Assembly: GCA_964490765.1 (NCBI GenBank)
Contig: CAZBDV010000010.1
Location: forward strand, 2,451 to 66,450
DNA length: 64,000 bases
From: an uncultured Candidatus Cloacimonadota bacterium
GTDB lineage: Bacteria; Cloacimonadota; Cloacimonadia; Cloacimonadales; JAJBBL01
Direction of reading: 5' to 3'
Below are positions 16,724 through 62,255 of this stretch, piece after piece. Position 1 is the stretch's first letter; every line of letters begins with the position of its first letter. A program made the translations under genes and the position numbers. The notes below the pieces were generated by a model. It worked only from the letters and a program-made list of their open reading frames with translations. It did no database searches and was not told the origin of the DNA.

Positions 16724-16748
16724 GGAAGATGTAAAGATTAATAGCTTA

Positions 16749-46399: not shown

Positions 46400-48655
46400 A
46401 TGTTTAGATCTTCCCAGATATTAGTCCTGCTGGGGCTTCTACTACTTACAGGGAATTTAATGTCTCAAGCTGCATCAGGTAGTGATCTGATACTTGAGAT
46501 ACGTGTTACAGGAAATGTAAATATCGAATCGGAGTTAATAATAGCTACTTCGAACATCTCTATTGGCCAGACGGCAACTGAAGATCGTGTAGCGGGAGCG
46601 ATCAGAAATCTTAACCAACTGGGAGTCTTTCACGATATTCAGATTCGCAGAGAACGGTTATCTGGTGGTATAAGACTGCTCATAGAGGTGGATGAGTATC
46701 CGATAATAGAATCATTGGAGTATGATGGTAACAGGCGAATCCGTAACAGCAAGCTCGATGAGATCTTGACTATCAGGGAAGGGAACTATATGGCCCCCTT
46801 CTTGTTATCAGAGAATCGGAAGCGTATTTTGAATGAATATAAAAGTGTGGGGTATAATTTTGCTGCTATCGATTATGAGATAAAAGAGTTAACAGGAAAC
46901 AGGGTAGAATTGATTATCCTGATCGATGAAGGTGAGAAGGTAGCGGTTAGAAAGATAAATTTTTATGGCAACAGAGAGATGACAGATCGGCAGCTTCTAA
47001 GAAGAATGAAGACAAAACGGGCAAGTCTTCTTCGTTCTGGACGTTTCGAGCAAGAGAAATTCGATGAGGACTTGAAATCGATTATCAGTCATTACAATGA
47101 TAATGGTTTCATCGATGCCAGGATAGTATCCTGGGAGACGAGAGTTCCCGAAAGCCGTGATATGCATATTGACATCTATCTCTATGAGGGGCGACGGTTC
47201 TACTTTGGTGATGTTATGGTACGGGGAAATGATCGTTTTACAGATGATGTTTTACTGGAGAAATTCGATTTTGATGATGAGGAGAGCTTCAATCTGGATA
47301 AATTCAACTCTCAGGTCGGACAGGTTGCTTCTATGTATTATGAGGAAGGTTATATCTATGCCGGCTTTGATCATGAGTTGATCAGGGATGGTAACCGTAT
47401 CAATATCGAACTCGAGGTCAATGAAAATACCCGGGCAAAGATAAGAAAGATCTTTATTGCCGGAAACAGAAGAACTAAAGAAAAAATTATCCGCAGGCAG
47501 CTTGCCATTAATCCCGGCGATTATTTCCGCCAGTCTCGTGTGATAAGGACTCAGCAGAATATTTATAATATGGGTTTCTTTGAACCCAATATAAGACTGG
47601 ATTATCAACCGATTAACAGTAATGGTGATATAGACCTGCTTATAGAACTGGAAGACAGGTATTCTGGTTCAGCTAATGCTGGTGTAGGTTATAACAGTCA
47701 GGACGGCTTTATCGGGCAATTGAGCCTTTCACACAACAATCTCTTTGGTAATGCCTGGCAGGGTGCCTTTTCCTGGGAGTTTGGCGGTTCAACACAGAAC
47801 TTTTCCTTAGATTTCACCGACCCCTATTTCCTCGACAGCTATACTCTGGTTGGTTTCAATCTCTATCATGCCAGAAGAGACTGGTCCTCATTCAACTATA
47901 AAGTCTTCACCACAGGTGGTAGCCTACGTGCCGGCAGGTCACTGTTTTTTATCGACCATTCTAGGCTGGTAGGAAGATATTCCTATAACAGAAAGAAATA
48001 TGAGATCATTAATCATGACGATCCTACAACTTCCTCCTACCTGAAAGAACTCGACAGTCTCGGGTGGAGAGACACGAGTTCCTTCTCTCTCACTTTCAGC
48101 AGAGATAGCAGAGATAACATATACTATCCAACGACCGGATCGCATCTGATACTATTCTCCGAACTTGCAGGTGGCCCGTTTGGTGGTGATTTCGATTATT
48201 TTAAACAGATTCTGCAATCTACCTGGTATACCAGGACTTTCTGGAAACTGGTTCTTCGCTCCAAGTGGCGGTTTGGTTACGTAACACCTTACGGCAGATC
48301 TGATGAGGTACCACCGGACGAAAGATTCTATCTCGGTGGAACGGGACCCGACGGTCTGAGAGGTTGGGTAGAACGTTCCATTCCCGCCAGATCAGCAGAA
48401 GGGGGCTTAAGAGCTATTATCCATTCCACAGAATTTACCGTCCCCATCGCCGGTGACCAGATTATCGGACTGTTGTTCTTCGATGCCGGCAACAGTTTCA
48501 ATAAATTGGAAGATTTCAACTTCTACGATTTCAAGAAAGGTGCCGGACTCGGAATTAGGATTCATAGCCCTCTCGGCCTGATTGGTTTTGATTACGGTTA
48601 TAACATAGACCAGAAAGAGTGGGAACCTCATTTCCAGTTCGGAGCGACTTTTTAA
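46400..48655 (+). CDS. bamA: Outer-membrane protein assembly factor BamA (Omp85 family)
   Basis: Signal peptide, five POTRA-like repeats (e.g. IEVDEYPIIESLEYDGN, KINFYGNREM, DVMVRGNDRF, KIFIAGNRRT), C-terminal barrel ending HFQFGATF. Confidence 0.9.
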   Translation: MFRSSQILVLLGLLLLTGNLMSQAASGSDLILEIRVTGNVNIESELIIATSNISIGQTATEDRVAGAIRNLNQLGVFHDIQIRRERLSGGIRLLIEVDEYPIIESLEYDGNRRIRNSKLDEILTIREGNYMAPFLLSENRKRILNEYKSVGYNFAAIDYEIKELTGNRVELIILIDEGEKVAVRKINFYGNREMTDRQLLRRMKTKRASLLRSGRFEQEKFDEDLKSIISHYNDNGFIDARIVSWETRVPESRDMHIDIYLYEGRRFYFGDVMVRGNDRFTDDVLLEKFDFDDEESFNLDKFNSQVGQVASMYYEEGYIYAGFDHELIRDGNRINIELEVNENTRAKIRKIFIAGNRRTKEKIIRRQLAINPGDYFRQSRVIRTQQNIYNMGFFEPNIRLDYQPINSNGDIDLLIELEDRYSGSANAGVGYNSQDGFIGQLSLSHNNLFGNAWQGAFSWEFGGSTQNFSLDFTDPYFLDSYTLVGFNLYHARRDWSSFNYKVFTTGGSLRAGRSLFFIDHSRLVGRYSYNRKKYEIINHDDPTTSSYLKELDSLGWRDTSSFSLTFSRDSRDNIYYPTTGSHLILFSELAGGPFGGDFDYFKQILQSTWYTRTFWKLVLRSKWRFGYVTPYGRSDEVPPDERFYLGGTGPDGLRGWVERSIPARSAEGGLRAIIHSTEFTVPIAGDQIIGLLFFDAGNSFNKLEDFNFYDFKKGAGLGIRIHSPLGLIGFDYGYNIDQKEWEPHFQFGATF

Positions 48656-48773
48656 AGAGACATACAAGTCGACAAAACCTCTTCAGTAGAAGGATTTACC
48701 TCACCGGCCGATAAAAATAGTGAAAAAGTCTTGACCGAAAGAGGAGGATTTAAAAGATTACCTTCGACTGTGA

Positions 48774-48852
48774 CGGGGTGTAGCGCAGCTCGGTTTAGCG
48801 CGCTTGATTTGGGATCAAGAAGTCGGAGGTTCAAATCCTCTCACCCCGACCA
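48774..48852 (+). tRNA. tRNA-Pro: tRNA-Pro (anticodon UGG), CCA encoded
   Basis: Acceptor CGGGGTG/CACCCCG. Anticodon stem CTTGA/TCAAG with loop TTTGGGA. T-arm GGAGGTTCAAATCCTC. Confidence 0.92.
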
Positions 48853-48868
48853 TGAAAACCGGAAATGC

Positions 48869-48944
48869 GGGCGTTTAGCTCAGTTGGGAGAGCGCTTGCC
48901 TTACAAGCAAGATGTCGGCGGTTCAAGTCCGTCAACGCCCACCA
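48869..48944 (+). tRNA. tRNA-Val: tRNA-Val (anticodon UAC), CCA encoded
   Basis: Acceptor GGGCGTT/AACGCCC. Anticodon stem CTTGC/GCAAG with loop CTTACAA. T-arm GGCGGTTCAAGTCCGTC. Confidence 0.92.
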
Positions 48945-49385
48945 TTTTCCCTGCTTCACCTTCCTCTGGTTTTTCCTGATCTCCGATCCCGGATCTCTGT
49001 TCACCCTTTTTTTCTTCCTGCTTCACCTTCCTCTGGTTTATACCTCATCACTTCATTACTCCATCACATCATCCCTCCTTGCTTTACCTTCTAATGGCAA
49101 AACCATGTCACTTTATTACCTCGTTACTCCGTCAACACGTTACCACTTTTCTTCTTGCTTCACCTTCCTCTGGTTTTTCCTGATCTCCGATCCCGGATCT
49201 CCCTTCACCCTTTTTTTCTTCCTGCTTCACCTTCCTCTGGTTTTTACCTCATCACTTCATTACTCCATCACATCATCCCTCCTTGCTTTACCTTCTAACT
49301 AATGGCAAAACCCTGTCACTTTGTTACCTTGTTACTTTGTCACCCCGTAACCTCTTTTCTCCTTGCTTTTCTACCGCTGGATCTA
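48928..49385 (+). repeat. Pyrimidine-rich higher-order tandem repeat (2 units of about 200-208 bp plus a partial third) that starts within the tRNA-Val 3' end
   Basis: Unit boundaries: TCCGTCAAC at 48928 and 49128, TTTGTCACC at 49336. Each unit holds three sub-repeats carrying CTTGCTTYACCTTC(C)TCTGG (seven occurrences: 48951, 49018, 49078, 49154, 49222, 49282, 49362). Confidence 0.9.
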
Positions 49386-49648
49386 TCTATTCTCTCCCCT
49401 CTACTATATATGCTTCACAAAATTTTTCCATATTTCTCTGAACTTCTCTTAAAACCCCTCCAGTAAACTCATCCAATCATTTTGATTTTTTTTAAACTTA
49501 TTTCAGTTTTTTCCCCCTCTCAGTTAATGATTATCATAGCACAACTTAGCTAAACTCTGGCAATAGAACAGAAATTATACTTTACAATTTGAGCTATCTC
49601 TGCTCATAGATAAGGAAGATTACAGGCAACAACGGAGGTTTGCCAACC

Positions 49649-51163
49649 ATGCCGAAAGCAAAAAACAAAGTAAAGCTTGATAAAATGGTGTTTCCCGACC
49701 CAGCAGAGAAGATCGCTATCGTCGAGAAGGTAGAGAGCAGCGATGAAATTCTCACCGGGCAAAGGATCGATTCCACCAGCAGTATAAATGAGTTGATAAT
49801 GCAAGACCTGGAACTACCTTTTCATCAGAGAGTACTCAGATTGAATCAATACACCAGGAATTACACCGTTGACAGAGATGGTCCGAACGTTCTCTTTCTC
49901 TCCTCGACCGAAGGTGGTTTTCCCAGAAAGGGATTGAGAATGCTCGGTAAAGAAGGAGAGGTCACAGGGTATTATCCCGCTCTGAACTTCGTCGATCTTG
50001 TCTTGAATGAGGATTCCGTCAGAGAGGGTGCACTGCATATCTTCTCTCATGAATTGGGTCACGTAATGATGAACAACATCATCCCCTCTTTCGCCAGGGT
50101 TCCAGAAGAAAAGACCAGTTCTATCCAGCACGTCAGTATGGGGGTAACCGATTATTTCACGGCCTTCTTTGAAGGCTGGGGCAATCATTTCCAGTATTTT
50201 GCCCATAGTATACCGAAATACAGGGAAGCTCTGGACTTTCTCTACCAGCCGCAAAATATACCGAAAACCCTCTGGCACTGTACCATTGAACGCGAATTAC
50301 GTCAGAGTGGAGTACTGCGCAACGCCTATATCTATGAAAAGCCTCTCTTTCCCGAACTCTACTCTCCGGACATATCACTGATAGATAAGGTACTTCTGGA
50401 ACACACCTATCCGCAATTCAACCCGTTGAAACTGCGTAATGCCCAGCAGATGCTGAGTTGTGAAGGCGTTATATCCACCATATTCCACAGGATAGTGAGC
50501 AGTCCGGTAATCCAGCGTAATTATCAGGTCGCTGCATTCTATACCCCTTTTTGCCTTGAGCCGTTAGAAGGGGAGATCAAAGAGCTAATTTCTCCTTACG
50601 AAAACGTAATGCTCAAGAACTTCCACGTCTGGGCTCAACTTGAAAAGTCACAGAACTACCTCTATTCTCCGGTCTTTATCGAATACCTTATGGAATGGTG
50701 CCGCGCCTTCCCGGAAGATAGCAGGGAACTGCTCTCTATCTTTATCAATATGACTGCCGGATCCACGATTTCGTCTACAGCTCCCGGGCTTTATGAAAAG
50801 GCTGCCTTCTATGGGATCAAGGGTGACATGGATAATTTCGTTGCAGCGCTGAAAGAATACATTTGCGAGATAGACAAGCTTATCAGCGCGGCCTGTGACG
50901 ACCCTGCTAACTTAGCTCAGAACATCGGTCCCGAATTATGGATAGAAAACAAACACTTCCGGATAAGGAAATACCTCTGGCTCCCGGAACCCTTGACAAC
51001 CTTCCGCCTGAATATCAATACCGCCTCTCCAATAGAACTCTCTACCCTGCCCGGAATGGATCTCCCGCAAGCTCTGCAGGTTTCTGAAAAACGCCGGGAA
51101 AGAGGTTTCTTCCAATCCTTCGCAGAGGCTGAAGAATGCGGTCTTGTCCTGCCCAAAAACTGA
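49649..51163 (+). CDS. Cytoplasmic HExxH metallopeptidase-like protein with a C-terminal helix-hairpin-helix (ComEA-like) motif
   Basis: IFSHELGHVMM zinc motif with a downstream FFEGWGNHF (possible third ligand). The C-terminal LNINTASPIELSTLPGMDLPQALQVSEKRRERGFF resembles ComEA-type HhH. No signal peptide. ATG at 49649 follows GGAGG. Confidence 0.6.
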   Translation: MPKAKNKVKLDKMVFPDPAEKIAIVEKVESSDEILTGQRIDSTSSINELIMQDLELPFHQRVLRLNQYTRNYTVDRDGPNVLFLSSTEGGFPRKGLRMLGKEGEVTGYYPALNFVDLVLNEDSVREGALHIFSHELGHVMMNNIIPSFARVPEEKTSSIQHVSMGVTDYFTAFFEGWGNHFQYFAHSIPKYREALDFLYQPQNIPKTLWHCTIERELRQSGVLRNAYIYEKPLFPELYSPDISLIDKVLLEHTYPQFNPLKLRNAQQMLSCEGVISTIFHRIVSSPVIQRNYQVAAFYTPFCLEPLEGEIKELISPYENVMLKNFHVWAQLEKSQNYLYSPVFIEYLMEWCRAFPEDSRELLSIFINMTAGSTISSTAPGLYEKAAFYGIKGDMDNFVAALKEYICEIDKLISAACDDPANLAQNIGPELWIENKHFRIRKYLWLPEPLTTFRLNINTASPIELSTLPGMDLPQALQVSEKRRERGFFQSFAEAEECGLVLPKN

Positions 51164-51329
51164 AAAGATGCTCAGCAGACCGTAAGGCTTCTACGAACTC
51201 AAGAGCTCGAAACAGAATGAATTTTTCTTCTGTTTGCGGGCAGAATTATCATTTTGATATAGCAGTCAGCAGTCTATCGTTCGAAATGGCCTGTCCATAA
51301 TGGATATGTTGCCTGCAGGTTTTGATCAG

Positions 51330-52766
51330 TTAACCCTTACCGGTGATCCTTTTCAATCTGTTAAGCGATATCTTTAGATAGCGGGCAGCCTGGGTCTTAT
51401 TTCCGTCGAACAGTTCGAGTGCTTTCTTCACGATCTCCTGTTGGGCAAGGTCGAAATCGAGTTCATCTTCCGGATATTGCAGGCAGAGGGTCCGGTCAAG
51501 ACCTGCCTGCTTGATTTTAGCTCCATCTATCAGGTAGGCGAAATCGGCAGCCGTCAATTCACCTTTTTCCGTCAGGAAAGCGGTACGTTCCACCGCGCTT
51601 TTCAGTTGCCGGACATTTCCCGGCCAGGAATAGCTGTTGAGAAACTCGATACAATCACTGCTAAGTGTTTTCAGTCTCACGTTGTTAGTTTCAGCCCATT
51701 TTTTCAGGAAAAGTTCCGTCAGGGGGATGATCTCCTCTTTTCTCTCTCTTAAAGGTGGTATAAAGATATGCGCCGAATTGATCCTGTAGTAGAGGTCTTC
51801 CCGGAAACTATTATTCTTGATCTTCTTTTTCAGATCTTTATTAGTAGCACAAATCAATCTCACATCGATCTTTTTACTGGCTATCCCGCCCACTCTGTAT
51901 ATCTCCCGCTCCTCGAGAGCCCTGAGCAGTTTCGATTGCTGCGTAATGGGTATTTCTCCGATCTCATCGAGCAGCAGTGTACCACCCTGAGCCAGTTCGA
52001 ATTTACCCTTCTTCCCCTTGCGGTCGGCACCGGTAAAGGCACCCGCTTCGTAGCCGAACAATTCACTTTCGAACAGGTTTTCCGGGATGGCGGCACAGTT
52101 GACCGTGATATACGGCTTTTCATTGTATTCTTCTCCGTAATGGATGAGCCGGGCAATGATCTCCTTACCGGTTCCGGTCTCACCTTCGATCAAAACGGGA
52201 ATGTTCCTGTTCTGATTAAGTTTTCTGGCCAGTTCCACGATTTCATTCATCTTGGTGGAGAAGAACCCGATCGTACCCAGTCCGAGACTATAGAAGTATT
52301 TTTCGTGCAACTGCTTGAATTTCGTCAGGATATCGGAACATTCTTCCTGTAGCCGCTCTTCGAATTGTGTTGATAAGATCCGGTTCTCTGAGAGGAGAGA
52401 CTGATGTTCTGCCACCCGGTCCAGTACTTTCATCAATAACCCGATATCTATCGGTTTTGTCAAAAAATCATAAGCACCGAGCCTCAATGCTCTGATGACG
52501 AAATCCATCTGCTGCTGGCCGGTGATGAGTACTATATCGATATCCTTCGCTGATGGGATCCGCTTCAACTGCTCCAGCAGATCGAATCCCGACATATCGG
52601 GCATCACGATATCGGAAACAATAAGATGAAAATTCTCCTTCTTCAAGATCTTCAGAGCTTCCATAACACTGCTGCAGTCGCGTACTTCGTGCCCGAGTTT
52701 ATTGCTTATATACACCTTGAGGCTTTTTCTCAGTTCGGCGTCATCATCTATCAGGAGTATCTTCAT
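51330..52766 (-). CDS. Sigma-54-dependent response regulator (NtrC/AtoC family: REC, AAA+, Fis-type HTH)
   Basis: REC domain (KILLIDDD...VSDIVMPDMSG), Walker A GETGTGKE, GAFTGA loop (YEAGAFTGADRKG), C-terminal HTH NKTQAARYLKISLNRLKR. Confidence 0.9.
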   Translation of the reverse strand: MKILLIDDDAELRKSLKVYISNKLGHEVRDCSSVMEALKILKKENFHLIVSDIVMPDMSGFDLLEQLKRIPSAKDIDIVLITGQQQMDFVIRALRLGAYDFLTKPIDIGLLMKVLDRVAEHQSLLSENRILSTQFEERLQEECSDILTKFKQLHEKYFYSLGLGTIGFFSTKMNEIVELARKLNQNRNIPVLIEGETGTGKEIIARLIHYGEEYNEKPYITVNCAAIPENLFESELFGYEAGAFTGADRKGKKGKFELAQGGTLLLDEIGEIPITQQSKLLRALEEREIYRVGGIASKKIDVRLICATNKDLKKKIKNNSFREDLYYRINSAHIFIPPLRERKEEIIPLTELFLKKWAETNNVRLKTLSSDCIEFLNSYSWPGNVRQLKSAVERTAFLTEKGELTAADFAYLIDGAKIKQAGLDRTLCLQYPEDELDFDLAQQEIVKKALELFDGNKTQAARYLKISLNRLKRITGKG

Positions 52767-54451
52767 TCCTTTTCCCTGTCCTGTTTTTTAAATGTCAGCA
52801 CGAATTTCGCACCGTGAGGTTCTAAATTACTGACCTCGATACTTCCATCATACCGCTCGACAAACGTCTTGACGATCGTCAGACCAAGGCCGGTACCCTG
52901 CTCCTGGGTCAGCGGCTTGGTAGAATAAAAAGGTTCGAATATCCTGGCTAAATTATCCTCCGGAATCCCCGGCCCGTTATCCTGCACAGTGAGATGTACT
53001 CTGTCGAAACTCTCCTGCAGGCCGATCTCGATGCTTTTCCTGTTATCCTGCATAGTGCTGAGTGCCTGCAGGGCATTGATGATCAGGATGATGATGATCT
53101 GCTCCAGATATGTCGGTACGAAGTCGATGAAGATATCCTCTTCCGGCAGGTTGAGATCACAGATAACCCCGGCAGAATAGATCTTGTGTCTTACACACTG
53201 AATACACTTGTTGATAGCCGCTTTGATATCTACCCTTTCACTCTGTCTCGATTCCTGCGAGCGGTAAAAATTCTTCATCTGGGTAATGATCTCGTTTATA
53301 TGCTGGACGGAGTTCTTGATGGAATGAAGAAATTCAACGGCATCATCGTGACTCGTTCCGTTAGTTCTATTCATACAGAACAGTGAATTCTCGACATTGA
53401 GGGCTATTGCCGAGAGTGGTTGATAGATCTCGTGCACGATACCGCTGGTAATGGCCGTTATGGAAGTGAGCCGGGCGGTCTTTTCCAGCAAACCTTCGTA
53501 TTTGATATTTTCCACCTCATTTTTATGCTCCAGAAGCAGCTTTGCCATCCTGTCCATCATCCTGTCGTTTAGCAGTTTCTCTTTCAGCTCTACGTATTTA
53601 TTCAAATATTCATTAGATTCTTTATAGGCACCTTTCTGCTGATAATAATCAGCCAGAGAGGCAAAAACTCCCAGCTTGTGCTCGGTATTTTCGCTCTTCT
53701 CCGCATAATCGAGTGCTCTCTTAAGATGTTCATAGGCTTCGTCGATATTATGCTCGATCAGAAAACTACCCAGTTTCTGATGAGCAAGATAGACGGTATC
53801 ATCGTTTCTTCTATCGGCGACCTCTACAGCCTTTTTTAGATAGTTCAAAGCCTGCCTGTGATCTTCCAGATTCATGTAAGCTACCGCTATATTGAGCAGG
53901 GATATTACCTTGCTGCGACCTTTGATAGCTCTATCGTCTGCCGGAGCATACTCGTAAGCCTTGAGGGAGTATTCTAAGGCTTTATCATACTCCTCTCTGG
54001 CTGTATAGACAGCAGATATGTTATTACAGACCCTGGCCGGATTAACTTCATACTGCAAAGCCTGCTGAAAATATGACAGAGCACTGTCATAATCCTGCAT
54101 CGTTACGTAAACTGTTCCAATATTATTCAGACAATCACCTAAAATACTGCTATTATCGATCTCTCTGCACAGTTTCAGGCATTCCAGATAATGATCCAGT
54201 GATTTACCGTATTCGTTGAGGTAATTATAATTCAGGCCCAGATAATAATGAGCATCTGCCAGTTGCTCCGGATCATCGATGCTCTCTGCAAGAGATCTTG
54301 CCAGCTCGGCATATTTCAAACCCTCCCGGTAATTACCTTCAGACCATTGCTGGCTCGCTATCTTAGATAAAAGCTGTAACCGGTCATTGATATCACGAGA
54401 ATTGTCGAGTCTGTATAGCAACTCTTTTACATTGCTTTGTTGTTCAGACAC
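52763..54451 (-). CDS. Cytoplasmic TPR-repeat sensor histidine kinase
   Basis: Multiple TPR-like repeats (e.g. AHYYLGLNYNYLNEYGKSLDHYLECLKL). H-box VHEIYQPLSAI, N-box LIINALQAL, G-boxes QDNGPGIP and GTGLGL. No hydrophobic segment. GTG start after GGGAGG. ATGA overlap with the regulator gene. Confidence 0.85.
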   Translation of the reverse strand: MSEQQSNVKELLYRLDNSRDINDRLQLLSKIASQQWSEGNYREGLKYAELARSLAESIDDPEQLADAHYYLGLNYNYLNEYGKSLDHYLECLKLCREIDNSSILGDCLNNIGTVYVTMQDYDSALSYFQQALQYEVNPARVCNNISAVYTAREEYDKALEYSLKAYEYAPADDRAIKGRSKVISLLNIAVAYMNLEDHRQALNYLKKAVEVADRRNDDTVYLAHQKLGSFLIEHNIDEAYEHLKRALDYAEKSENTEHKLGVFASLADYYQQKGAYKESNEYLNKYVELKEKLLNDRMMDRMAKLLLEHKNEVENIKYEGLLEKTARLTSITAITSGIVHEIYQPLSAIALNVENSLFCMNRTNGTSHDDAVEFLHSIKNSVQHINEIITQMKNFYRSQESRQSERVDIKAAINKCIQCVRHKIYSAGVICDLNLPEEDIFIDFVPTYLEQIIIILIINALQALSTMQDNRKSIEIGLQESFDRVHLTVQDNGPGIPEDNLARIFEPFYSTKPLTQEQGTGLGLTIVKTFVERYDGSIEVSNLEPHGAKFVLTFKKQDREKE

Positions 54452-54767
54452 GGTTCTGACCTCCCATTTAAAACAATGAAATGCCAGCTACCCGCCTTAA
54501 TATGTCAAGTAATTTGAAAATTTATCTCTCCGATCGGTTCCCGTAAAACACCTCAGGTTCTAACCACCTGCTTACCCGGAAATAGCCGGTTGATACTATC
54601 ACAGAGGATTTGCCAAATATTATATCATTTTTATATGGAAAGAGTGTTGACCATCCATATCGCCTGTTCATTTTGGATAACTAAAAGTGGAGAAATTAGC
54701 TTATCACAGGTCTGCTATAAGCCATAAAACAATATCCACTAATATCTTATGGTCGTCTTACCCCCTT

Positions 54768-54783
54768 TGGCACCTTTCTTGCA
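54768..54783 (+). promoter_or_regulatory. Sigma-54 (-24/-12) promoter
   Basis: TGGCACctttcTTGCA is a full match to the TGGCAC-N5-TTGCW consensus. It lies 106 nt upstream of the ATG at 54890, in the divergent intergenic region next to a GAFTGA activator gene. Confidence 0.75.
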
Positions 54784-54889
54784 ATTAAGAGGACCAAGAG
54801 GGATTAGATAAAGAAAACCAGCAGCAACGAAACAGCTGCTAACATTAATTAAGCGTAAAAGATTAGTAAACGATAGGAGGTTAACTAAT

Positions 54890-57298
54890 ATGAAGACTCA
54901 GAACTTGATTTTGATAGTTGGTATAATCCTTGCCCTGAGTTCCCTGTATGGTAACTGGGAAGGTTATTTACCTACTTATGTGGTACATACTTTGTACGAA
55001 GATGGTGATTATTTGTGGCTCGGTACAACAGGCGGTATTATTCATTATAATATCCATACCGAGGAGAAGACCTACTACAATACTCTGAATACCGGTCTCC
55101 ACACGGTAAAGATAACTGCTCTGACCAAAGACCAGCAGGGGAATTTATGGGTTGCTTCTACCTTTGATAACTACCGGGTGACAGGTTATGACTTCGATTT
55201 TGAGGCTCCGACGCTACAAAGAGAATATTGGGCGGGGCTCTACAAATTCGCTACCGATGGTGCGTGGCATTTTTACAATTTCGAGAACACTCCGCTGGAA
55301 TTCGATGTGATCCATGCCCTGGCCGTAGATAATGATAACAAACTCTGGATAGGAACGATTCACTATGGTATCTTTGTACATGACCTGAATGATGGAAGTT
55401 GGACAAACTATACCAAAGAAAACGCCGATATCGGGTCCAATCATATCAGATCGTTCTACGTCAGGGATAATGGCGAGGTCTGGGTTGGGCACTGGCCAGA
55501 TGAAATCCTGGAGCCCAGGTATATTACTGAAGATCGCGACCCGGGAGAGATCCTCGAACCAATGCAGGATCGCTTCGATAAGCAATATAAATGGGAAGAA
55601 CTTGTTTCTGATGGCGGGGGGATCTCCAGATATCATAACGGAGTCTGGACAAACTTTTTTGATCAGCTTCCCAAAGAACATCCCGAGTCCAGTACGGTAC
55701 ATGATATAACTGAAGATGCAAATGGTATACTCTGGTTTGCAGCCACGCTTGACGGTTTTCTCAGCTATGACGGTTATGAGTTCGAGCAGTATCTACTCCC
55801 TTATGAGCCTTATTTTGAGATGTCGGGAATGCCATTTGGGATCGATTTTGATCATGACGGCAATATCTGGCTGGGTACCAATATCGGCATTTATACCTAT
55901 GATGGTGATGAACTGATCAGATATCATTCCGGTAACGGACTGAATCACGAGTACGCCATTACCATCATCCATACTGACTCTTTCAACAATGTCTGGATGG
56001 GTAGCGACTTTAAAGGGCTTTTCAAATATCACAACGGAACAATTACCGAAGCGGAGATCGATTCTGAAATAGCCTGCTATCCGATCAGATCTATTGAGGT
56101 TGATGCTTCCGGTAGGCTCTGGATCGGTGCCGGTGAAAATGTGCTCAATATGGGAACCGGTGGACTGTACAGCTTTGACGGAGATCAGTGGGATTTCTAC
56201 GGTTGGGATCTCATCGATACCTGGCGTGTAAACGATATCTTTACCAGAGACGGTTACATCTATCTGGCAACCGGAGAGAACGGAGATGAAGGTGGTGCTG
56301 CCGTTTATGACGGGACTTCCTGGACGATACATAATTTTTCCACCAGTGATTATGTCCTATGGGCCGGTCATTCCATCACTGCCTGTGAAAACAGGATCTG
56401 GGTCGGTGTTGACGATACCAATGGCGGGCTATCCAGATATGAGAACGGGCAATGGACACTTTACACTTCGGCTAACAGCGGGTTGGCTACAAACAATGTC
56501 ACTACTGTTGCTGTTGATCCACTGGACAATTCCGTCTGGGTAGGTTCCAGATTCGGACTCTACAACTTTGACGGCTCTAACTGGACTTACTATTTCTCTT
56601 TCATGTATCCTGAGTTGACCTATGATTATATCAACGATCTCTATTTTGACGACCAGAACACTCTCTGGGTCGCAATGGAGATGGGTCTGGCCAGTTATGA
56701 CGGTGAGGTATGGCAGAACTACGATCACCTCTTACCGTATTTTGATGGATGGGGTACTGCACCGGTCTGGTCGGTTACCAAAGACGAGTATGACAGGGTC
56801 TGGATAGCATTTTTCGGTGGGGTGATGATGCTCGATCTCGATAACAACGAAGTAGAAACTTTTGATATGGCGAATTCACCGCTTCCGACTAACTTTATCC
56901 CCCAGGTTCGTTCGGACAGGAATGGTAAATTATGGATCAGGACCTGGTCCGATGGTCTCTATGCCTACGAATACGGACAGCATCTCTCCGTTCCGGATGA
57001 CATTGTTGCTGATAACCAGTTACGTGCTTATAATTACCCGAATCCTTTCAATCCCACGACAAGCATTGTCTTTGATAACCCCCACCCCTCCAATATCTCG
57101 CTTGATATCTATAACGTCAGGGGACAGAAAGTCAAGACCCTCCTGGATCGAGAATACCTGGGCAAGGGTGTCCTGAACGTTATCTGGGATGGTTCCGACA
57201 GCAGGGGTAATTCTGTTTCTTCTGGGATCTACTTCTATACGATCTCCGATGATGAAGGGAGATATCGCATTATAAATAAAATGATGATGATTAAATAG
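54890..57298 (+). CDS. Secreted beta-propeller protein built of two-component-regulator-propeller-like repeats, with a T9SS C-terminal sorting domain
   Basis: Signal peptide. Many repeats of the type (N/D)..LW(V/I)GT..G(L/I)..Y(D/N). C-terminus YPNPFNPTTSIVFDN...SGIYFYTI...INKMMMIK. AGGAGG RBS. Confidence 0.8.
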   Translation: MKTQNLILIVGIILALSSLYGNWEGYLPTYVVHTLYEDGDYLWLGTTGGIIHYNIHTEEKTYYNTLNTGLHTVKITALTKDQQGNLWVASTFDNYRVTGYDFDFEAPTLQREYWAGLYKFATDGAWHFYNFENTPLEFDVIHALAVDNDNKLWIGTIHYGIFVHDLNDGSWTNYTKENADIGSNHIRSFYVRDNGEVWVGHWPDEILEPRYITEDRDPGEILEPMQDRFDKQYKWEELVSDGGGISRYHNGVWTNFFDQLPKEHPESSTVHDITEDANGILWFAATLDGFLSYDGYEFEQYLLPYEPYFEMSGMPFGIDFDHDGNIWLGTNIGIYTYDGDELIRYHSGNGLNHEYAITIIHTDSFNNVWMGSDFKGLFKYHNGTITEAEIDSEIACYPIRSIEVDASGRLWIGAGENVLNMGTGGLYSFDGDQWDFYGWDLIDTWRVNDIFTRDGYIYLATGENGDEGGAAVYDGTSWTIHNFSTSDYVLWAGHSITACENRIWVGVDDTNGGLSRYENGQWTLYTSANSGLATNNVTTVAVDPLDNSVWVGSRFGLYNFDGSNWTYYFSFMYPELTYDYINDLYFDDQNTLWVAMEMGLASYDGEVWQNYDHLLPYFDGWGTAPVWSVTKDEYDRVWIAFFGGVMMLDLDNNEVETFDMANSPLPTNFIPQVRSDRNGKLWIRTWSDGLYAYEYGQHLSVPDDIVADNQLRAYNYPNPFNPTTSIVFDNPHPSNISLDIYNVRGQKVKTLLDREYLGKGVLNVIWDGSDSRGNSVSSGIYFYTISDDEGRYRIINKMMMIK

Positions 57299-57307
57299 GA
57301 GTTAAAA

Positions 57308-59080
57308 ATGAAGAATATAAGGTTTAATCAGTTATTGTTAAGTATTGTTTTACTGCTTGCTGCTGCTTTCTGTTACTCGCTGACAGATCTGCAGCCGGAA
57401 TTTGGAAACGCTTCCGGATACAGGAATTCCGTTCCGGAAATAGAACAGGTAAATTTGTCATATGATGTGGATGGCTGTTACATCTATATGAGTTGGCTTC
57501 CTTATGAAGAGGAGGATAACATCGGTTTCAATCTCTATCGTAATAATGAATTTCTCGACTATATCGAAAGGGAAACATATGCATGGGGCTACTATTACGC
57601 CGATTATGATGTTATTAATATGAACCAATACAGTTATTACCTGACTTTCGTCTATGATGACGGAGAGTCCGACCCTTCCGAGACTGTGGCAGTATGGGTT
57701 CTCTACCCACCCTATCCGATCACTGCCCTTCCCTATGGGGATCATGTAGTGATAACATGGGAAGCACCGGAAGAAGATACACGCCTGATCAACGGATACA
57801 ATATCTATAAAAACTTCGAACTACTCAATCCCGAACCGGTCACTGAACTTGCATACATTGATTATGATGTAAACCAGGGGATGCTCTATAACTATTTAGT
57901 GACTGCCGTCTATGAAGATATGGGAGAATCTGCTGAATCTAACTGTTTCTATGTCATCGTAGAAGACAAAGTCGATCCACCTCAGAACATACTACATACA
58001 GTTGATATCGACGAAGTTATGCTCTCCTGGGAGCGTCCTGCAAATAACGGAAACTGGTATCGTTTTGACGATGATACTGTCGGAGGTGCCTACGTATCTG
58101 ACAGCGGAGATTTTACAGCAGTGATCCATTATGATCTCATGGACCTCTTCAACTACAATAACTGGAGACTTGAGAGAATCAGTTTTGTTCCTCTATCAGA
58201 TGAAGGGACATATACTTTTGAGTTATGGGAAAAATCTCCCTGGAGTCCTGATACATATGAGTTATGGACCCAGATAGAACTGGAAGATATAGTTCCGAAT
58301 GAATGGAACACCGTTCCTGTTTCGGAATGGGATGGTCCTGTGATCGCAGGCGGTTATACTCAGTTCAGGATAGCTATCAGATGTGAAGGTGTTAATGCCG
58401 GCATTGCTTATGACGATAGCCCTAATATGCACGAACGTTCTGACTTGCTGATCATAGACGGTAATGAAACAAACCTCTCTGAACAGGGGATAGATGCAAA
58501 CTGGAAGATCAGGGGATACATGTCTCCGCCACAACCTTTTGTGCCCGGAAATGGAATCGAGTTATTGGGATATAATCTTTATCGTGATGATGTGCTGATC
58601 ACTCAGCTGGCTGAAATCAATGAACACTTCATTGAAACAGGTCTTGCCGATGGCGTGTATCAATATCATATGACTGCAGTTTACGAGATCGAGATCGGTT
58701 TTGATGTATATTACATTGAATTTGAATCGATGGAATCGGAGCTCGTAACGGTCTCGGTCGGCATCACAGGAGTAGAAAAGGATCCCGTACAGGAGATCGT
58801 CACCAATGATGTCATTCTCCATAACTATCCCAACCCCTTCAATCCTGATACGACGATTACTTTCAGCCTGAACAACCCTTCCAGAGTGCAGATCGATATC
58901 TATAACATTCAAGGCAGGAAAGTACGCTCTCTGGTAGCCGAAGAATTCTCTTCCGGTCTGCATCAGATCGTCTGGGATGGTACTGATGATTACAGAAAAC
59001 CTGTCGGCAGTGGTGTTTACTTTTCCCGCATGACCACCAAAAAGAGCACCAGTACCAATAAGATGCTGCTACTTAAATAA
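57308..59080 (+). CDS. Secreted Fn3-repeat protein with an unassigned central domain and a T9SS C-terminal sorting domain
   Basis: Signal peptide. Repeated GFNLYRN/GYNIYKN/GYNLYRD...Y.VTAVY modules. C-terminus YPNPFNPDTTITFSL...SGVYFSRM...TNKMLLLK. Starts 9 nt after the upstream gene. Confidence 0.8.
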   Translation: MKNIRFNQLLLSIVLLLAAAFCYSLTDLQPEFGNASGYRNSVPEIEQVNLSYDVDGCYIYMSWLPYEEEDNIGFNLYRNNEFLDYIERETYAWGYYYADYDVINMNQYSYYLTFVYDDGESDPSETVAVWVLYPPYPITALPYGDHVVITWEAPEEDTRLINGYNIYKNFELLNPEPVTELAYIDYDVNQGMLYNYLVTAVYEDMGESAESNCFYVIVEDKVDPPQNILHTVDIDEVMLSWERPANNGNWYRFDDDTVGGAYVSDSGDFTAVIHYDLMDLFNYNNWRLERISFVPLSDEGTYTFELWEKSPWSPDTYELWTQIELEDIVPNEWNTVPVSEWDGPVIAGGYTQFRIAIRCEGVNAGIAYDDSPNMHERSDLLIIDGNETNLSEQGIDANWKIRGYMSPPQPFVPGNGIELLGYNLYRDDVLITQLAEINEHFIETGLADGVYQYHMTAVYEIEIGFDVYYIEFESMESELVTVSVGITGVEKDPVQEIVTNDVILHNYPNPFNPDTTITFSLNNPSRVQIDIYNIQGRKVRSLVAEEFSSGLHQIVWDGTDDYRKPVGSGVYFSRMTTKKSTSTNKMLLLK

Positions 59081-59140
59081 CGCAGTAAGAAGATAAATCT
59101 TGTTCTCATAAAATCCTCATGCAACGAGGTAAATGACCAT

Positions 59141-59174
59141 CAGGGGGTTGGATTGTTCAACCCCTGTTTTTTTT
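59141..59174 (+). terminator. Rho-independent terminator of the two-gene cargo operon
   Basis: GGGGTTG gattgtt CAACCCC followed by T8. Confidence 0.8.
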
Positions 59175-59189
59175 AGAAGTAAGAATAAT

Positions 59190-59535
59190 GTTGTGGAGTT
59201 GTGAAGTCCTGAAGTTGTGAAGTCCTGAAGTTTTGGAGTGCTGACGGTTAATGGAGTAATGGAGTGATGGGGTGATGAAGTGATGGGGTAATGAAGTAAT
59301 GGGGTCACGATGTAATGAATAATGAATATCTGTCAAATTGGTAAAGTAAGGTGTTTGGTTACTTTGCTCCCAATGGACTTGCTTCGACTTCCTTCCGGTT
59401 TTTTTTCAGGGGTGGCAAGCTCCCGCTTGCCACAACCCTTGCTTTGCCCCGGCAGCTTGCTAATCCTCCCTCTGGTTTTTCACCTCAAAACTCCACAACG
59501 CTTTCCGGCACACCTCCTTTTCCGGCCTATTGTTT
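59190..59535. repeat. Diverged second copy of the tRNA-Val-associated repeat family: an inverted purine-rich arm followed by a forward pyrimidine-rich arm
   Basis: 59199-59230 is a perfect 16-bp x2 tandem (GTTGTGAAGTCCTGAA). The reverse complement of about 59262-59290 matches CATCACTTCATTACTCCATCAC of the 49.0-kb unit at about 20/22 positions. 59379-59476 carries CTTGCTTCGACTTCCTTCCGG and CTTGCTAATCCTCCCTCTGG in forward orientation. Confidence 0.75.
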
Positions 59536-59549
59536 TCAGAATACTTAAG

Positions 59550-59633
59550 ACACCGTCACCTCGGGAATATACTTCTACAGAATGACAACATCTGCTTTAG
59601 ATAGAAACGAAAAGATGATCATGATGAAGAAGG
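59550..59633 (+). pseudogene. Remnant 3' end of a T9SS-cargo gene (last ~25 codons of the sorting domain only)
   Basis: This frame reads (stop)DTVTSGIYFYRMTTSALDRNEKMIMMKK, which parallels SGIYFYTI...INKMMMIK, SGVYFSRMTT...KMLLLK and the other cargo C-termini. A TAA lies immediately upstream at 59547-59549 and no upstream coding body exists. Confidence 0.7.
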
Positions 59634-59874
59634 TTAGTAAAGCAGTAATTAACAAAAGGGGCGGATTCAAGGTTCACTCTCCTTTGTTAATATACAAAGA
59701 AAATAATTAGATCTTGAATAGAAGTGATATTGCGTTAGCAACGCCAATTTCACAGTCTTCCTTGCCTTAAAAGCTGTCAACAATTCTGGCTCACCAATTT
59801 CAGTACACCTCAATATGAACATAGTATATCTTCCAATTTTCAAGTCAAAAAGACAGGAATCTTAGCTAATTAAT

Positions 59875-60300
59875 TTAGTGATCTCGATACCTTGCCATCC
59901 AATTTGTTTGATCATGCCCAGTGTTAGGATTTCGTATTATGCTAACAAGATAATGTTTGAAATATAGCTCTTCCGGATAATCGAGACTACCAAAATTTTG
60001 CCATACAGTACGAGAATCGAAAATATGAATTACAATGTGTCCACGATCTCGATTCTTATATATTGAGTGAAGATTCTCTGCAAGCTCTAATACTTCTTCT
60101 TTCGTAGATTCTTCTGATACAAGTATTTCCATACCATTACCTCCAGCTGGGATTTTCCAACTTCTAAGTACTTGATATTCAATTATATCAGATTCATCTA
60201 TTTCAAGAACCTCCGTATCTTCTGATTGACCTTGATTTATAATATAGCCAATCAAAAGCAAAAAGAGAACGATAACTGCGATAATTAAAATGATTTTCAT
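59875..60300 (-). CDS. Membrane-anchored hypothetical protein in an AT-rich islet
   Basis: 141 aa, N-terminal hydrophobic anchor (IILIIAVIVLFLLLIGYII), GGAGG RBS. No motif recognised. Confidence 0.55.
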   Translation of the reverse strand: MKIILIIAVIVLFLLLIGYIINQGQSEDTEVLEIDESDIIEYQVLRSWKIPAGGNGMEILVSEESTKEEVLELAENLHSIYKNRDRGHIVIHIFDSRTVWQNFGSLDYPEELYFKHYLVSIIRNPNTGHDQTNWMARYRDH

Positions 60301-60608
60301 AATTTCCTCCTTAGAATTTAGTTTATAAGATTAATTATTGCGGCAAGATGTCAACGGAATTTAAAATTACGTAGACATCTAATGTGATTTTTAATAAAAG
60401 GGATACATAATATATAGCACCTGACTTACAAGTTATAATATCAGTGTATCGAATGGTTTCTCGCAATCCCAAGCGGTAAGTAGTTTCTCTTCGAGTTCCA
60501 GTTAATCCTTGACTGTCAGAGGAGAAGTATTTCATTCAGGTCAGGGGTTGTTTGAACCCTATCATTGAAGTTGTTAAGAAGTTATAGAAAAAGGGAAAAG
60601 AGTGGGAT

Positions 60609-62255
60609 ATGATTGTTAAGAGCCGGGTGAGAGGTTCTATTAGCAGTACTGTTAGTTTGTTGCTGCTGGTGGTTTTGCTGCAGATGATGCCGTTGGCATT
60701 GGGAGCGACGGAACTGTTTTGCCACCTGCATGAAGAGAGGGGAGAGGCTGCTGAGGAAGCACCTACTTTTATCAGAGAGTTTCTCAGTTTTAGCGAATCG
60801 GGGGATTCTGTGATCCGGATCAGCAGGGTTGATCTTAATCGACTCTTTCAGCAGCGGGAAGGTTTTAGAGCTGGTCATGCTGTCTATTTTGAACTACCTG
60901 CGGGGGAGAGGCTGACCGGTTTCGTGGAGAGTTTCGTAGAAGATATCAACGGGACACTTACCCTGCGAGCGAGAATCGAAGGTTCGGAGTTCGGTTATAT
61001 TCTGATCTCCCATTCAGAGGGGAGATATCTCGGAAGGATCAGTATTCCCGAAAGAGGGGAGTATTATCAATTGATGAGTTCCCGTGACCGTGAGCACTAC
61101 CTTCTGCAGATAGACAAATCAAGGAAGGGGCATATCCAGCGGAGCGGGCCGATAATTCCACCGGCAGATACTAGTCCGCAACGAATGTCAGGCCGGAGAG
61201 AAGCAGGGCCGGATGACCTGGCAGTAATCGACCTGATGATCGTCTATACCCCTACAGCATACTCCTGGGCAGAAGTAAATTCCGGCGGGATAAATAACAC
61301 TATAGCCCAGGCGATGAACATGGCTCAGATAACCCTCGATAACAGCCGGACCTCGATAATATTGAGACTCGTGCTCTCGCGGCAGGTTAATCATGGAGAA
61401 TCACCAAACGGTTCGGTAGAACTTTTCAGGATAAGGTCTTCACCGGAAAGCCCCTGGCCGGAGCAGCATCAGGGTTACCAGGTGGCCGGGTATATGGACG
61501 AGATCCATCTCTGGCGTGACCAGTACGGAGCCGATCTCGTGGCTTACTTTGCCTTCGTCACGGATTGCAGCGGGATGGCCTTCCTGCTCCAGGATGTTAA
61601 CGGACAGCCGGATTATGGTTTCTCCCTGACCAACATTCAGGCTGCAGCCTCATCCTACACCCATATCCACGAAATAGGGCATAACATGGGTGCCCATCAC
61701 CACATAGAGCAGAATTTCCAACCGGGCTCGGGGATTTTTTACTATTCGTCCGGCTGGCGCTGGACCGGTTCTGACGGGAATCATTACTGCAGTGTAATGA
61801 CCTACGAATCAAGCCAGTATTTCTCTGATAATATCGACCACGTAAACGTGCCCTATTTTTCCAATCCCGATGTCCTGCATTTCGGAGTGGAAACCGGTCA
61901 TCCTGTCTATGCCGATAATGCCAGAACCCTGAGGGAGACGAAACACGTCGTGGCCTCATACAGAGGTATTGAAGATCAGTATGCCCCCCTGATCAGGAAC
62001 TATCCCAACCCCTTCAACGAGACGACGACCATCTCCTTTCTGGTGAGCGAACAGGGTAGGGTGAAGATCGATATCTTTAATATAAAAGGCCAGTTAGTAA
62101 CGACCTTGCTAAACGAAGAGATCGATGCGGGAATGCATACAGCCAGCTGGGACGGCAGAGACGCAGGGGGGAGAATACAGGCGAGCGGGCTCTATATCTA
62201 CCGGGTGAAAGATCCGGAGAATATCAGAACCCGTAAGATGATGCTGTTGAAGTGA
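60609..62255 (+). CDS. Secreted reprolysin-like (M12B-type) zinc metallopeptidase with a T9SS C-terminal sorting domain
   Basis: HEIGHNMGAHH (HExxHxxGxxH). Signal-like N-terminus. C-terminus YPNPFNETTTISFLV...SGLYIYRV...TRKMMLLK. Confidence 0.8.
   Translation: MIVKSRVRGSISSTVSLLLLVVLLQMMPLALGATELFCHLHEERGEAAEEAPTFIREFLSFSESGDSVIRISRVDLNRLFQQREGFRAGHAVYFELPAGERLTGFVESFVEDINGTLTLRARIEGSEFGYILISHSEGRYLGRISIPERGEYYQLMSSRDREHYLLQIDKSRKGHIQRSGPIIPPADTSPQRMSGRREAGPDDLAVIDLMIVYTPTAYSWAEVNSGGINNTIAQAMNMAQITLDNSRTSIILRLVLSRQVNHGESPNGSVELFRIRSSPESPWPEQHQGYQVAGYMDEIHLWRDQYGADLVAYFAFVTDCSGMAFLLQDVNGQPDYGFSLTNIQAAASSYTHIHEIGHNMGAHHHIEQNFQPGSGIFYYSSGWRWTGSDGNHYCSVMTYESSQYFSDNIDHVNVPYFSNPDVLHFGVETGHPVYADNARTLRETKHVVASYRGIEDQYAPLIRNYPNPFNETTTISFLVSEQGRVKIDIFNIKGQLVTTLLNEEIDAGMHTASWDGRDAGGRIQASGLYIYRVKDPENIRTRKMMLLK

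Follow-up and report, generated by a model that had tools for sequence, protein, structure and literature searches.

Flexible or replacement islands, also described as plasticity zones, hold different cassettes in one chromosomal slot between conserved flanks. Related forms of genome organization are the integrase-mediated islands at tRNA genes, short non-coding repeats that mediate rearrangement, such as elements resembling repetitive extragenic palindromes and bacterial interspersed mosaic elements (REP/BIME) or miniature inverted-repeat transposable elements (MITEs), and, located downstream of Escherichia coli tyrT, repeated 178-bp units that contain a Rho-dependent terminator. Here we describe a locus from an uncultured Cloacimonadota bacterium that we have compared to these systems. 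It resides in a DNA stretch of 64,000 nucleotides (the window) and comprises two related repeat zones, of which the left one follows a tRNA-Val gene, with a metallopeptidase-like gene carrying an HExxH motif, a two-component system and cargo genes of the type IX secretion system (T9SS) located between them. The initial annotation, made by a model from the sequence, had claimed that related repeat copies bracket a block of ~10.6 kb, which we could confirm above shuffle expectation with coordinates off by at most 1 nt. We propose, at a probability of about one half, that the locus is a plasticity zone anchored at tRNA-Val, in which cassettes turn over beside a conserved pyrimidine-rich module, without insertion of the whole block by an integrase.

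As in described plasticity zones, conserved flanks, formed by BamA, the tRNAs and the HExxH gene to the left and by a 565-aa T9SS gene and Fer2/FAD genes to the right, enclose unrelated DNA in the window, in the sister species represented by contig L086 and in the conspecific strain represented by contig L110, with surface or secreted proteins as cargo. Unlike in these zones, a small conserved non-coding module persists inside the variable DNA, with breakpoints on either side. With integrase-mediated tRNA islands the locus shares its position next to a tRNA gene, the differing gene content of close relatives, direct repeats around the first cassette and a mosaic composition, and a relative (L008) shows the canonical form of such an island at the same tRNA-Val. 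It differs from them since no integrase was found, the repeats do not correspond to the tRNA 3' end, occur in multiple copies and are under purifying selection, and the conserved repeat-flanked unit is a single gene with the variable DNA beside it. REP/BIME-like elements and MITEs resemble the locus in being short non-coding repeats that mediate rearrangement, and the right zone contains a terminal inverted repeat (16/18) that spans 310 bp. Conversely, the repeats described here occupy only two loci in 72 kb, lack a target-site duplication and include a unique hairpin, and their exact 21-mer is found at no other locus in JGI metagenomes. As at E. coli tyrT, tandem repeats follow a tRNA gene.

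Results

Two related repeat zones flank a metallopeptidase-like gene

The BamA protein encoded in the window (46400-48655) shows 78-84% identity to homologues in metagenome-assembled genomes (MAGs) of Cloacimonadota. It is followed in rightward direction by tRNA-Pro(TGG) (48774-48852) and tRNA-Val(TAC) (48869-48944), both on the plus strand and identified by ARAGORN and Rfam, the left repeat zone, the HExxH gene, the two-component system and two T9SS cargo genes. Beyond the cargo operon, an intrinsic terminator, the right repeat zone (~350 nt), a gene fragment, an AT-rich islet and a cargo gene encoding an M12 metallopeptidase complete the arrangement. The order BamA, tRNA-Pro, tRNA-Val is kept in the relatives L008, L009, L010 and L011 and in L086. 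The HExxH gene (49640-51163, plus strand, ATG at 49649, 507 aa) encodes a metallopeptidase-like protein whose translation contains the motif HELGH and a C-terminal helix-hairpin-helix (HhH; Pfam HHH_3, below the family cut-off). Its nearest homologues are 80% identical in the L086 lineage and at most 47% identical in other lineages, scattered over several phyla, and for its N-terminal part no solved relative was found.

The left repeat zone (48945-49393, ~450 nt, plus strand) begins 1 nt past tRNA-Val and contains seven motifs initiated by CYTGCT (termed A motifs), which alternate with a small hairpin/T-run unit and with pyrimidine arrays of 8-nt periodicity. The 25-nt motif CYTGCTTCACCTTCCTCTGGTTTTT occurs four times after tRNA-Val (at 48950, 49017, 49154 and 49221) with 0-2 mismatches, where zero copies are expected in shuffles. 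If the CYTGCT-initiated variants are counted, seven copies are found in 48950-49393 and three in 59378-59481, compared to an expectation of ~0.33 per 450 nt. The zone also harbors a tandem duplication of 204 nt (48939-49094 and 49143-49298, 95% identity) and is characterized by a base content of 6-8% G and 28-35% C. Within the right zone, a conserved module of 137 nt (59364-59500, plus strand) contains TTTGCTCCCAATGGA, an A motif at 59378, a hairpin at 59412-59433, A variants at 59438 and 59456 and finally a short 8-nt array ending in CTCCACAAC. Both zones share a core of ~31 nt, CTTGCTnnACCTTCCTCTGGTTTTT(T)ACCTC, direct copies of which flank the HExxH gene in both sister species.

The repeat modules are ancestral and under constraint

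The contig of the sister species, L086, was found via a 90%-cluster member of the 80% identical HExxH homologue and is collinear with the window between 38.8 and 51.18 kb at 76-84% nucleotide identity, including the upstream T9SS genes through the HExxH gene. Its left zone consists of a single unit (9609-9730), and its cores at 9621 and 11822, which are 29/31 identical and embedded in unrelated flanks, lie on either side of the HExxH homologue. Since L086 contains a left-repeat unit and the HExxH gene in the same order, both are ancestral, and since direct cores flank this gene in both species, the ancestral arrangement is one of repeats around a single gene. The right module is orthologous to L086 11744-11862 (87/110 identical, 79%), which is located ~235-350 nt past the HExxH stop codon, and both have in common TTTGCTCCCAATGRACTTGCT and the pattern GCTTGCTnnnCCTyCCTCTGGTTTTTyACCTC...CCACAAC. 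This homology ends on both sides of the module (right edge 59500 in the window, 11862 in L086), with the flanking DNA being non-homologous between the sister species, and the module thus constitutes an island of conservation amid non-homologous DNA.

Identity between the window and L086 at fourfold-degenerate sites amounts to 51% in BamA and 63% in the HExxH gene, whereas the tRNA trailer together with the first core is identical at 28 of 30 positions (93%) and the 280 nt upstream of the HExxH gene at 80%. Because the repeats are conserved well above fourfold-degenerate sites, they are constrained elements and neither decaying scars nor passive marks of one insertion. This shows that the repeat modules are ancestral and under constraint. 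The copy number of the left zone, in contrast, differs in the three genomes, which contain one core-bearing unit with three A-type motifs, six motifs and seven motifs, respectively, and L110 lacks one 67-nt unit (L110 3881-4240, corresponding to window 48945-49370). These differences show that the copy number changes through unequal exchange between the motifs of the zone.

Breakpoints coincide with the end of the gene and the edges of the right module

The comparison of relatives places breakpoints at the HExxH 3' end as well as on either side of the right module. In the conspecific strain L110, identity amounts to 99.6% over BamA and 97.4% over the HExxH gene, falling toward the variable zone, until similarity ends at window position 51137, nine codons before the HExxH stop codon; the next 180 nt of L110 (6007-6187) match no compared sequence. 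The loss of homology at 51137 demonstrates that strains are polymorphic at the junction where the HExxH gene ends. With respect to L086, homology ends at 51178, so that the left junction of the variable segment spans 51137-51178, and resumes only at ~68.8 kb at the 565-aa T9SS gene, beyond the end of the window, where the DNA was read through the same-strain contig L003. Between these points, L086 contains 5.5 kb encoding a 165-aa protein, a 1285-aa AAA_16-TPR protein and RidA, compared to 17.6 kb in the lineage of the window. The variable segment between the HExxH gene and the right module (51178-59363) comprises 8.19 kb in the window and 0.21 kb in L086, and lineage-specific DNA extends past the right repeat, to ~68.8 kb with respect to L086 and to 62275 with respect to L083.

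In four more distant relatives (L008, L009, L010 and L011, BamA identity 68-84%), unrelated genes follow tRNA-Val, and both the repeat and the HExxH gene are absent. One of them, L008 (BamA identity 78%), is collinear with the window between 32.5 and 48.9 kb, with homology ending exactly after tRNA-Val. Seven other same-strain contigs are strictly collinear with the window and contain no alternative junctions, and the JGI contig L081, from the same species, is collinear as well.

These comparisons bear on the proposal of the initial annotation that the block was inserted or rearranged through the repeats. A variable zone anchored at tRNA-Val does exist, the right zone is located at true rearrangement junctions and a gene relic abuts it. 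The view of the block as one unit between two repeats did not hold, since the variable part starts only at 51137-51178 and the HExxH gene is ancestral. L086 already has this gene and both repeats, and its differences from the window are confined to 51178-59363 and to the DNA right of 59500 and do not amount to the presence or absence of a single unit. The claimed lack of an integrase or transposase agrees with our Pfam scan, which found no recombinase or transposase domain in the window; the scan covered the main open reading frames (ORFs) of 46.4-62.3 kb and, up to 46 kb, selected non-overlapping ORFs of at least 110 aa except for the long T9SS ORF 21867-25304. A tRNA-derived distal repeat was not detected either, with no significant copy downstream of tRNA-Val in the window and the following 8 kb.

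L008 displays a different pattern at the same position. An exact 53-nt repeat of the 3' half of its tRNA-Val, reaching from the anticodon loop to 7 nt past CCA, is found at 20466-20518, 9 kb downstream of the tRNA gene (11398-11473), with a decayed copy between them at 14307-14346. The repeats bracket three T9SS cargo genes (252, 421 and 1773 aa), with no other ORF of at least 100 aa in between; the Pfam content of these three genes was not scanned. This pattern is a classical attachment (att) signature at the same tRNA-Val and independently shows this tRNA to be a hotspot of the clade.

The variable segment encodes a putative self-contained regulon

Downstream of the left junction, the variable segment carries genes of a two-component system on the minus strand, encoding a sigma-54-dependent response regulator (51330-52766) and a TPR-containing histidine kinase (52763-54451), both assigned by Pfam. 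A search of 5.8 billion clustered proteins yielded no scored candidate homologous to the kinase at E <= 1e-60 apart from the kinase itself. A consensus sigma-54 promoter, TGGCACCTTTCTTGCA (54768-54783, plus strand), which is the sole zero-mismatch match to TGGYAYN5TTGCW in the window, is located 107 nt upstream of an operon of two T9SS cargo genes (54890-59080, plus strand; Pfam, NCBIfam) and is divergent from the genes of the sigma-54 activator and the TPR kinase. The first cargo gene encodes an 802-aa beta-propeller (Reg_prop, PorZ-like, below cut-off) and the second a 590-aa protein with an RGI-lyase-like domain, and both proteins end in a FlgD_ig/Por_Secre_tail C-terminal domain (CTD). An intrinsic terminator with a 10-bp stem followed by T8 (59143-59175, plus strand) closes the operon. 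The cargo operon thus appears to be under control of its own two-component system, and the segment 51178-59363, which ends in purine-rich arrays, is best described as a putative coherent and self-contained regulon. No relic of the two-component or cargo genes was found in the corresponding spacer of L086.

The composition of the region is only mildly atypical. The GC content at third codon positions (GC3) reaches 0.54-0.58 in the HExxH gene, the regulator and the M12 gene, and the tetranucleotide deviation is highest over 47-54 kb, at z = 2-3, in part due to the repeats themselves. On the level of genes, r = 0.70 was obtained for the HExxH gene as well as the regulator, and r = 0.78-0.83 for the kinase and the cargo genes. 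As a whole, the region is a mosaic in composition.

To the right of the right zone, an orphan 3' end of a T9SS cargo gene (59546-59629, plus strand) starts with a stop codon, TAA, after which comes DTVTSGIYFYRMTTSALDRNEKMIMMK, its original stop codon being lost. This orphan tail had been recognized in the initial annotation and is supported by the last 25 residues of six CTDs encoded in the window, which align to it end to end (39-52% identity); the seventh CTD, that of the 802-aa protein, aligns over 13 residues only. The tail itself covers 59555-59629 in the frame of 59549, the in-frame TAA at 59546 precedes it, and no CTD-like sequence is found further upstream. It is a gene fragment. A complete T9SS type A CTD (~75 aa in an intact ORF) was rejected, since only the final 25 residues are recognizable, and orthology with the T9SS gene beside the glycosyltransferase (GT) cluster of L083 was rejected as well, with the similarity consisting only of an 18-nt identity encoding KMIMMK. 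The AT-rich islet described next to the tail was also recovered (GC 0.33 over 59700-60600); it contains a 141-aa ORF (59875-60300, minus strand) and a 66-aa ORF. Both the islet and the GC-rich gene of the M12 metallopeptidase, a T9SS cargo protein (60609-62255, plus strand; Pfam), belong to further lineage-specific DNA right of the repeat (59660-62275), as the homology to L083, whose glycosyltransferase shows 92% protein and 89% DNA identity, starts only at 62275. The GT/GH130 cluster of L083 has wholly different neighbours on both sides, with a Transposase_mut gene on its right (16499-17749), and may be a movable module itself.

The variable content of the neighbourhood consists mainly of T9SS cargo genes. 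Compared to L008, two extra cargo genes, encoding an RCC1-repeat protein and a CHB_HEX_C/Fn3_assoc protein, sit between conserved genes of the window (40108-42402 and 43838-45862), and both are also present in L086. Elsewhere in the window, ten tandem 7-nt units in which AAGGGCT alternates with AAGAGCT (6117-6186; 14-nt period, 96% matches) overlap the final 6 nt of a GNAT ORF upstream of an LPG_synthase_C-like gene, and the genes of a Lambda Bor-like lipoprotein (13420-13764) and of a 385-aa ankyrin-repeat protein (16752-17906) are found among housekeeping genes.

Organization of the right repeat zone

Most of what had been described for the right zone could be reproduced. The diverged copy of the tRNA-Val-associated repeat placed at 59190-59535 is represented by forward copies at 59378 (73%) and 59456 (85%), and its right arm, said to match in forward orientation, does so in a local alignment of 27/31 with a score of 35, compared to 18.8 +/- 2.5 in shuffled sequences. 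The left arm, described as the reverse complement of the sub-repeat at 49.04 kb, aligns over 28/32 positions with a score of 44, compared to 17.7 +/- 2.0 in shuffles. The proposed complementarity of the arm ends corresponds to a terminal inverted repeat (59190-59207 and 59482-59499, 16/18) that was reached in 0 of 200 shuffles, and the perfect 9-bp hairpin was located at 59412-59433 and is unique within the window. The suggestion that the locus could fold as a long imperfect palindrome was not borne out, with z-scores of -2.3 as DNA and -0.7 as RNA, and a long palindrome or cruciform was rejected since folding is no better than in shuffles. Likewise, the similarity of the tRNA-like core noted at the right end, CACCGTCACCTCGG, is at chance level.

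The purine-rich array of 8-nt periodicity at the left of the zone (59190-59329, plus strand) is confined to the lineage of the window and has no counterpart in L086. It matches the reverse complement of the sub-repeats at 49.04 and 49.25 kb over 37-39 nt at 82-84%. Within it, 59249-59317 is related in inverted form to the left-zone array, while its opening 18 nt are an inverted copy of 59482-59499, the end of the module itself. This inverted relation to both the module end and the left-zone array suggests that the purine arrays would have originated from local fold-back copying, followed by 8/16-nt slippage. The array contains 18 stop codons distributed over all three frames of the plus strand, and the strand opposite to the G-poor arrays has stops in every frame, reaching 1.5-2 times the number expected from shuffling.

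Several alternative identities were considered for this zone. A sigma-54 promoter was rejected because TGCCACAACCCTTGCT lacks the GG. A MITE or an element resembling an insertion sequence in 59190-59499 was rejected despite the 16/18 inverted repeat, since the flanks AATAAT and GCTTTC show no target-site duplication, no other copy was found and the right half is orthologous to L086 DNA without the left arm. An inverton was rejected in light of the collinearity of all eight same-species contigs with the window and the lack of a recombinase. Three contigs, L006, L004 and L005, start at window positions 59411, 59726 and 59727, respectively, all of them collinear with the window; the first start is inside the hairpin, and the other two, 1 nt apart, come from two independent assemblies (ENA and JGI). 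These starts may reflect a drop in coverage or unresolved population variation to the left. Assembly breaks near 59.4-59.7 kb and 48.9-49.8 kb were rejected as alternative structures since all contigs are collinear.

Distribution of the core and of related arrays

Searches of 72 kb of this genome and of 21.5 kb of L086 revealed no further copy of the core, and additional repeat copies were detected neither in the window nor in loci of 72 relatives. In JGI metagenomes, an exact 21-mer of the repeat is restricted to this locus (including sample Ga0334896, which holds the organism) and one unrelated coding match. Together with its absence from the 72 loci, the lack of another genomic locus with this 21-mer led us to reject a dispersed repeat family. 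At gathering score, Rfam returned only three tRNAs, with just noise at E <= 5. A tRNA origin of the repeats was rejected, as local alignments of tRNA-Val and tRNA-Pro to both zones are at shuffle level, and homology of the repeats to the tRNA trailers of L008, L009 and L011 is not significant. No flanking repeats were found around the distant HExxH homologue in L082. An att site of a phage or integrative element was rejected after a search of 2.9 million viral contigs, where a core 17-mer gave 18 matches, none extending to the flanks, and the 3' 26-mer of tRNA-Val gave no match. Terminus signals of dif/KOPS type, a Chi-like array, a cluster of DnaA boxes, a CsrA-sponge RNA and a coding potential of the arrays were all dropped after inspection by eye, with no consistent match.

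Intergenic 8-nt-periodic arrays are also found in other Cloacimonadota genera (L064 20440-20820 and 21414-21494; L043 7205-7337; L015 4303-4386; L052 9795-9845; L050 8320-8400, 9340-9460 and 9780-9890), with very different units such as ACTTCATT (ten copies), GTTTTGAG (13 copies), GTCGTGAG and TTAAGGCA. Across the intergenic zones of L064 and L050, G-poor arrays are preceded on the left by a G-rich array, whose G-rich strand has stop codons in every frame, again 1.5-2 times as many as expected from shuffling. We found no description of such 8-nt arrays in the searchable literature. Repeated hairpins of the types CGACATCTTGTCG and CGTCAGGATGACG are common to these two contigs, which originate from distant genera (L064 20575-20670 and L050 9110-9290), with a loop, CAGGATGA, similar to the GGA hairpin of CsrA type, suggesting a putative conserved structured repeat or small RNA.

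A possible role of the module in transcription termination

In all its occurrences, the module is sense-oriented and sits at the 3' end of a rightward transcription unit: that of the tRNA operon, in L086 that of the HExxH gene and in the window that of the cargo operon. A scan of 48600-49700 detected no plus-strand intrinsic terminator 3' of tRNA-Val, and plus-strand hairpin terminators are absent after tRNA-Val and the HExxH gene in both the window and L086, whereas in four relatives without the module (L018, L058, L068 and L074) a clear terminator consisting of a hairpin and a T-run follows tRNA-Val. The longest G-poor tracts of the window are located here, with a C/G ratio of ~4-5 over 48986-49535 (~550 nt), and the left zone is essentially unstructured, with a minimum free energy of -41 kcal/mol for 456 nt. 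Published criteria for Rho utilization (rut) sites comprise an excess of C over G, lack of structure, a length of at least 70-80 nt and regularly spaced C (PMC6407284; PMC12360218). The stretch following the tRNA operon exceeds this length with C>G, is unstructured and contains no credible ORF. With rut sites and Rho-dependent terminators it shares its C-rich, G-poor and unstructured character over more than 80 nt on the sense strand and its position at units without hairpin terminators, but it differs in its period of 8 nt, instead of 9-13 nt, and in its specific conserved 31-nt core. From either side of the right zone, a transcript would meet the stop-rich array first and the G-poor tract second. 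We thus tentatively consider, with the odds against it, that the module is a putative Rho-loading (rut-like) terminator or insulator that acts on the transcript.

Discussion

In our study, we have characterized a locus in which constrained non-coding repeats persist next to DNA that differs between close relatives. In the plasticity zone that we propose, the interval between the repeats would be the tRNA-proximal part of a gene-turnover zone of ~20 kb, which extends from 48.9 to ~68.8 kb, past the end of the window. The two repeat zones would be paralogous copies of one lineage-specific module that combines the core with an 8-nt-periodic G-poor array, and the common ancestor of both species would have carried one copy after tRNA-Val and another directly after the HExxH-HhH gene, where the module would terminate or insulate transcription at the 3' ends of the tRNA operon and of this gene. 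In the strain described here, the 8.2-kb regulon would now reside between the HExxH gene and the right module, and other cassettes, represented by the T9SS relic, the AT-rich islet and the M12 peptidase gene, to its right, with the orphan tail as probable debris of a displaced cargo cassette. Cassettes would be gained and lost via illegitimate or short-homology recombination, slippage or fold-back copying at the repeats. The unequal exchange of 26-nt motifs, the inverted copying, the breakpoints at module edges and the truncated gene all fit short-homology or illegitimate recombination combined with slippage better than insertion of the complete 10.6-kb block by an integrase.

An alternative explanation, which we consider unlikely but deserving of attention, would regard the cores as attL and attR of an integrative element downstream of tRNA-Val that carries the HExxH-HhH gene, with or without the regulon, whose integrase was lost or acts in trans and at whose right-hand att copy later elements would have accreted. 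Such an element would account for the sharply bounded direct repeats of 31 nt with unrelated flanks, which are 29/31 identical in L086, for the co-occurrence of module and HExxH gene, which are both absent from L008, L009, L010 and L011, for the drop in identity of HExxH homologues from 80% to 47% and their scattering over several phyla, for the elevated GC3 common to the HExxH gene and the regulator and for the different DNA on both sides of the right module in two species; the 53-nt tRNA-Val repeat of L008 further marks the locus as an integration hotspot in the clade. It is harder to reconcile with the lack of any integrase, transposase or other recombinase in 64 kb, with a repeat that is not derived from the tRNA and occurs as seven and three motifs instead of a single one per end, and with a core conserved far above neutral sites long after any integration. 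Neither an extended match of the core in 2.9 million viral contigs nor, in seven same-strain contigs, an alternative junction that would provide evidence for excision or an empty site was found, and the homologue in L082 lacks flanking repeats. It is doubtful that the repeats are instead purely gene-specific regulatory elements of the HExxH-HhH gene, such as operators or parts of untranslated regions to which a protein or RNA binds, whose proximity to the junctions would be coincidental. Although within 72 kb of this genome and 21.5 kb of L086 the core is confined to the surroundings of this gene and is strongly conserved, as is the whole 280-nt region upstream of the gene at 80%, the right copy of the window is retained 8 kb away from the gene, three independent breakpoints coincide with module edges or the gene end, and the left zone is amplified and polymorphic, which is unusual for an operator. 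Finally, a chance resemblance of two pyrimidine-rich stretches of low complexity is hardly credible: both zones are compositionally extreme, and 8-nt-periodic arrays of other sequences do occur at other Cloacimonadota loci, but zero copies of the motif are expected, the alignments score 6-13 standard deviations above shuffles, the inverted repeat was reached in 0 of 200 shuffles, and orthologous copies at both positions in the sister species refute this explanation.

Certain observations weigh against the plasticity zone with a terminating module as we propose it. The sharply bounded and near-identical 31-nt repeats, the patchy distribution of the gene and the adjoining tRNA would also fit a site of att type. 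The comparison is based on only two species and three genomes, and the 8.2 kb may have been gained here or lost in L086: there is no relic in L086, no close homologue of the kinase and an ambiguous composition. With respect to termination, the 8-nt period departs from the 9-10 nt per Rho subunit observed by cryo-EM (PMC12360218) and from the spacing of 11-13 nt employed in RhoTermPredict (PMC6407284), a rut site leaves the conservation of a specific 31-nt core unexplained, a general-purpose terminator is hard to reconcile with a core that was found nowhere else in 72 kb of this genome, and an intrinsic terminator already closes the cargo operon before the right zone. The case for Rho, which was built from sequence features, is circumstantial.

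The block itself combines an old gene between repeats with a sigma-54 cargo regulon that varies by strain or species, both set in a larger mosaic. In kind, the locus is a variant of the familiar tRNA-linked variable region, and its less familiar part is the conserved non-coding junction element. It would be rather improbable that core and arrays together constitute a previously undescribed cis-element of Cloacimonadota, which would act both as factor-dependent terminator or insulator and as preferred junction for cassette exchange without a dedicated recombinase; if so, the looser 8-nt arrays of other Cloacimonadota genera would belong to the same class. Established ideas are not challenged by these results, which nevertheless call for caution, since repeats around a gene block beside a tRNA are insufficient to call an island, and a single sister genome has shifted both presumed ends. 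If our proposal is correct, accessory genes of secreted proteins in this uncultured phylum would turn over at a tRNA-anchored slot without a resident recombinase, and a selected non-coding element would adjoin this turnover, which would make it a candidate for an unusual terminator and a useful marker for variable cargo loci in Cloacimonadota MAGs.

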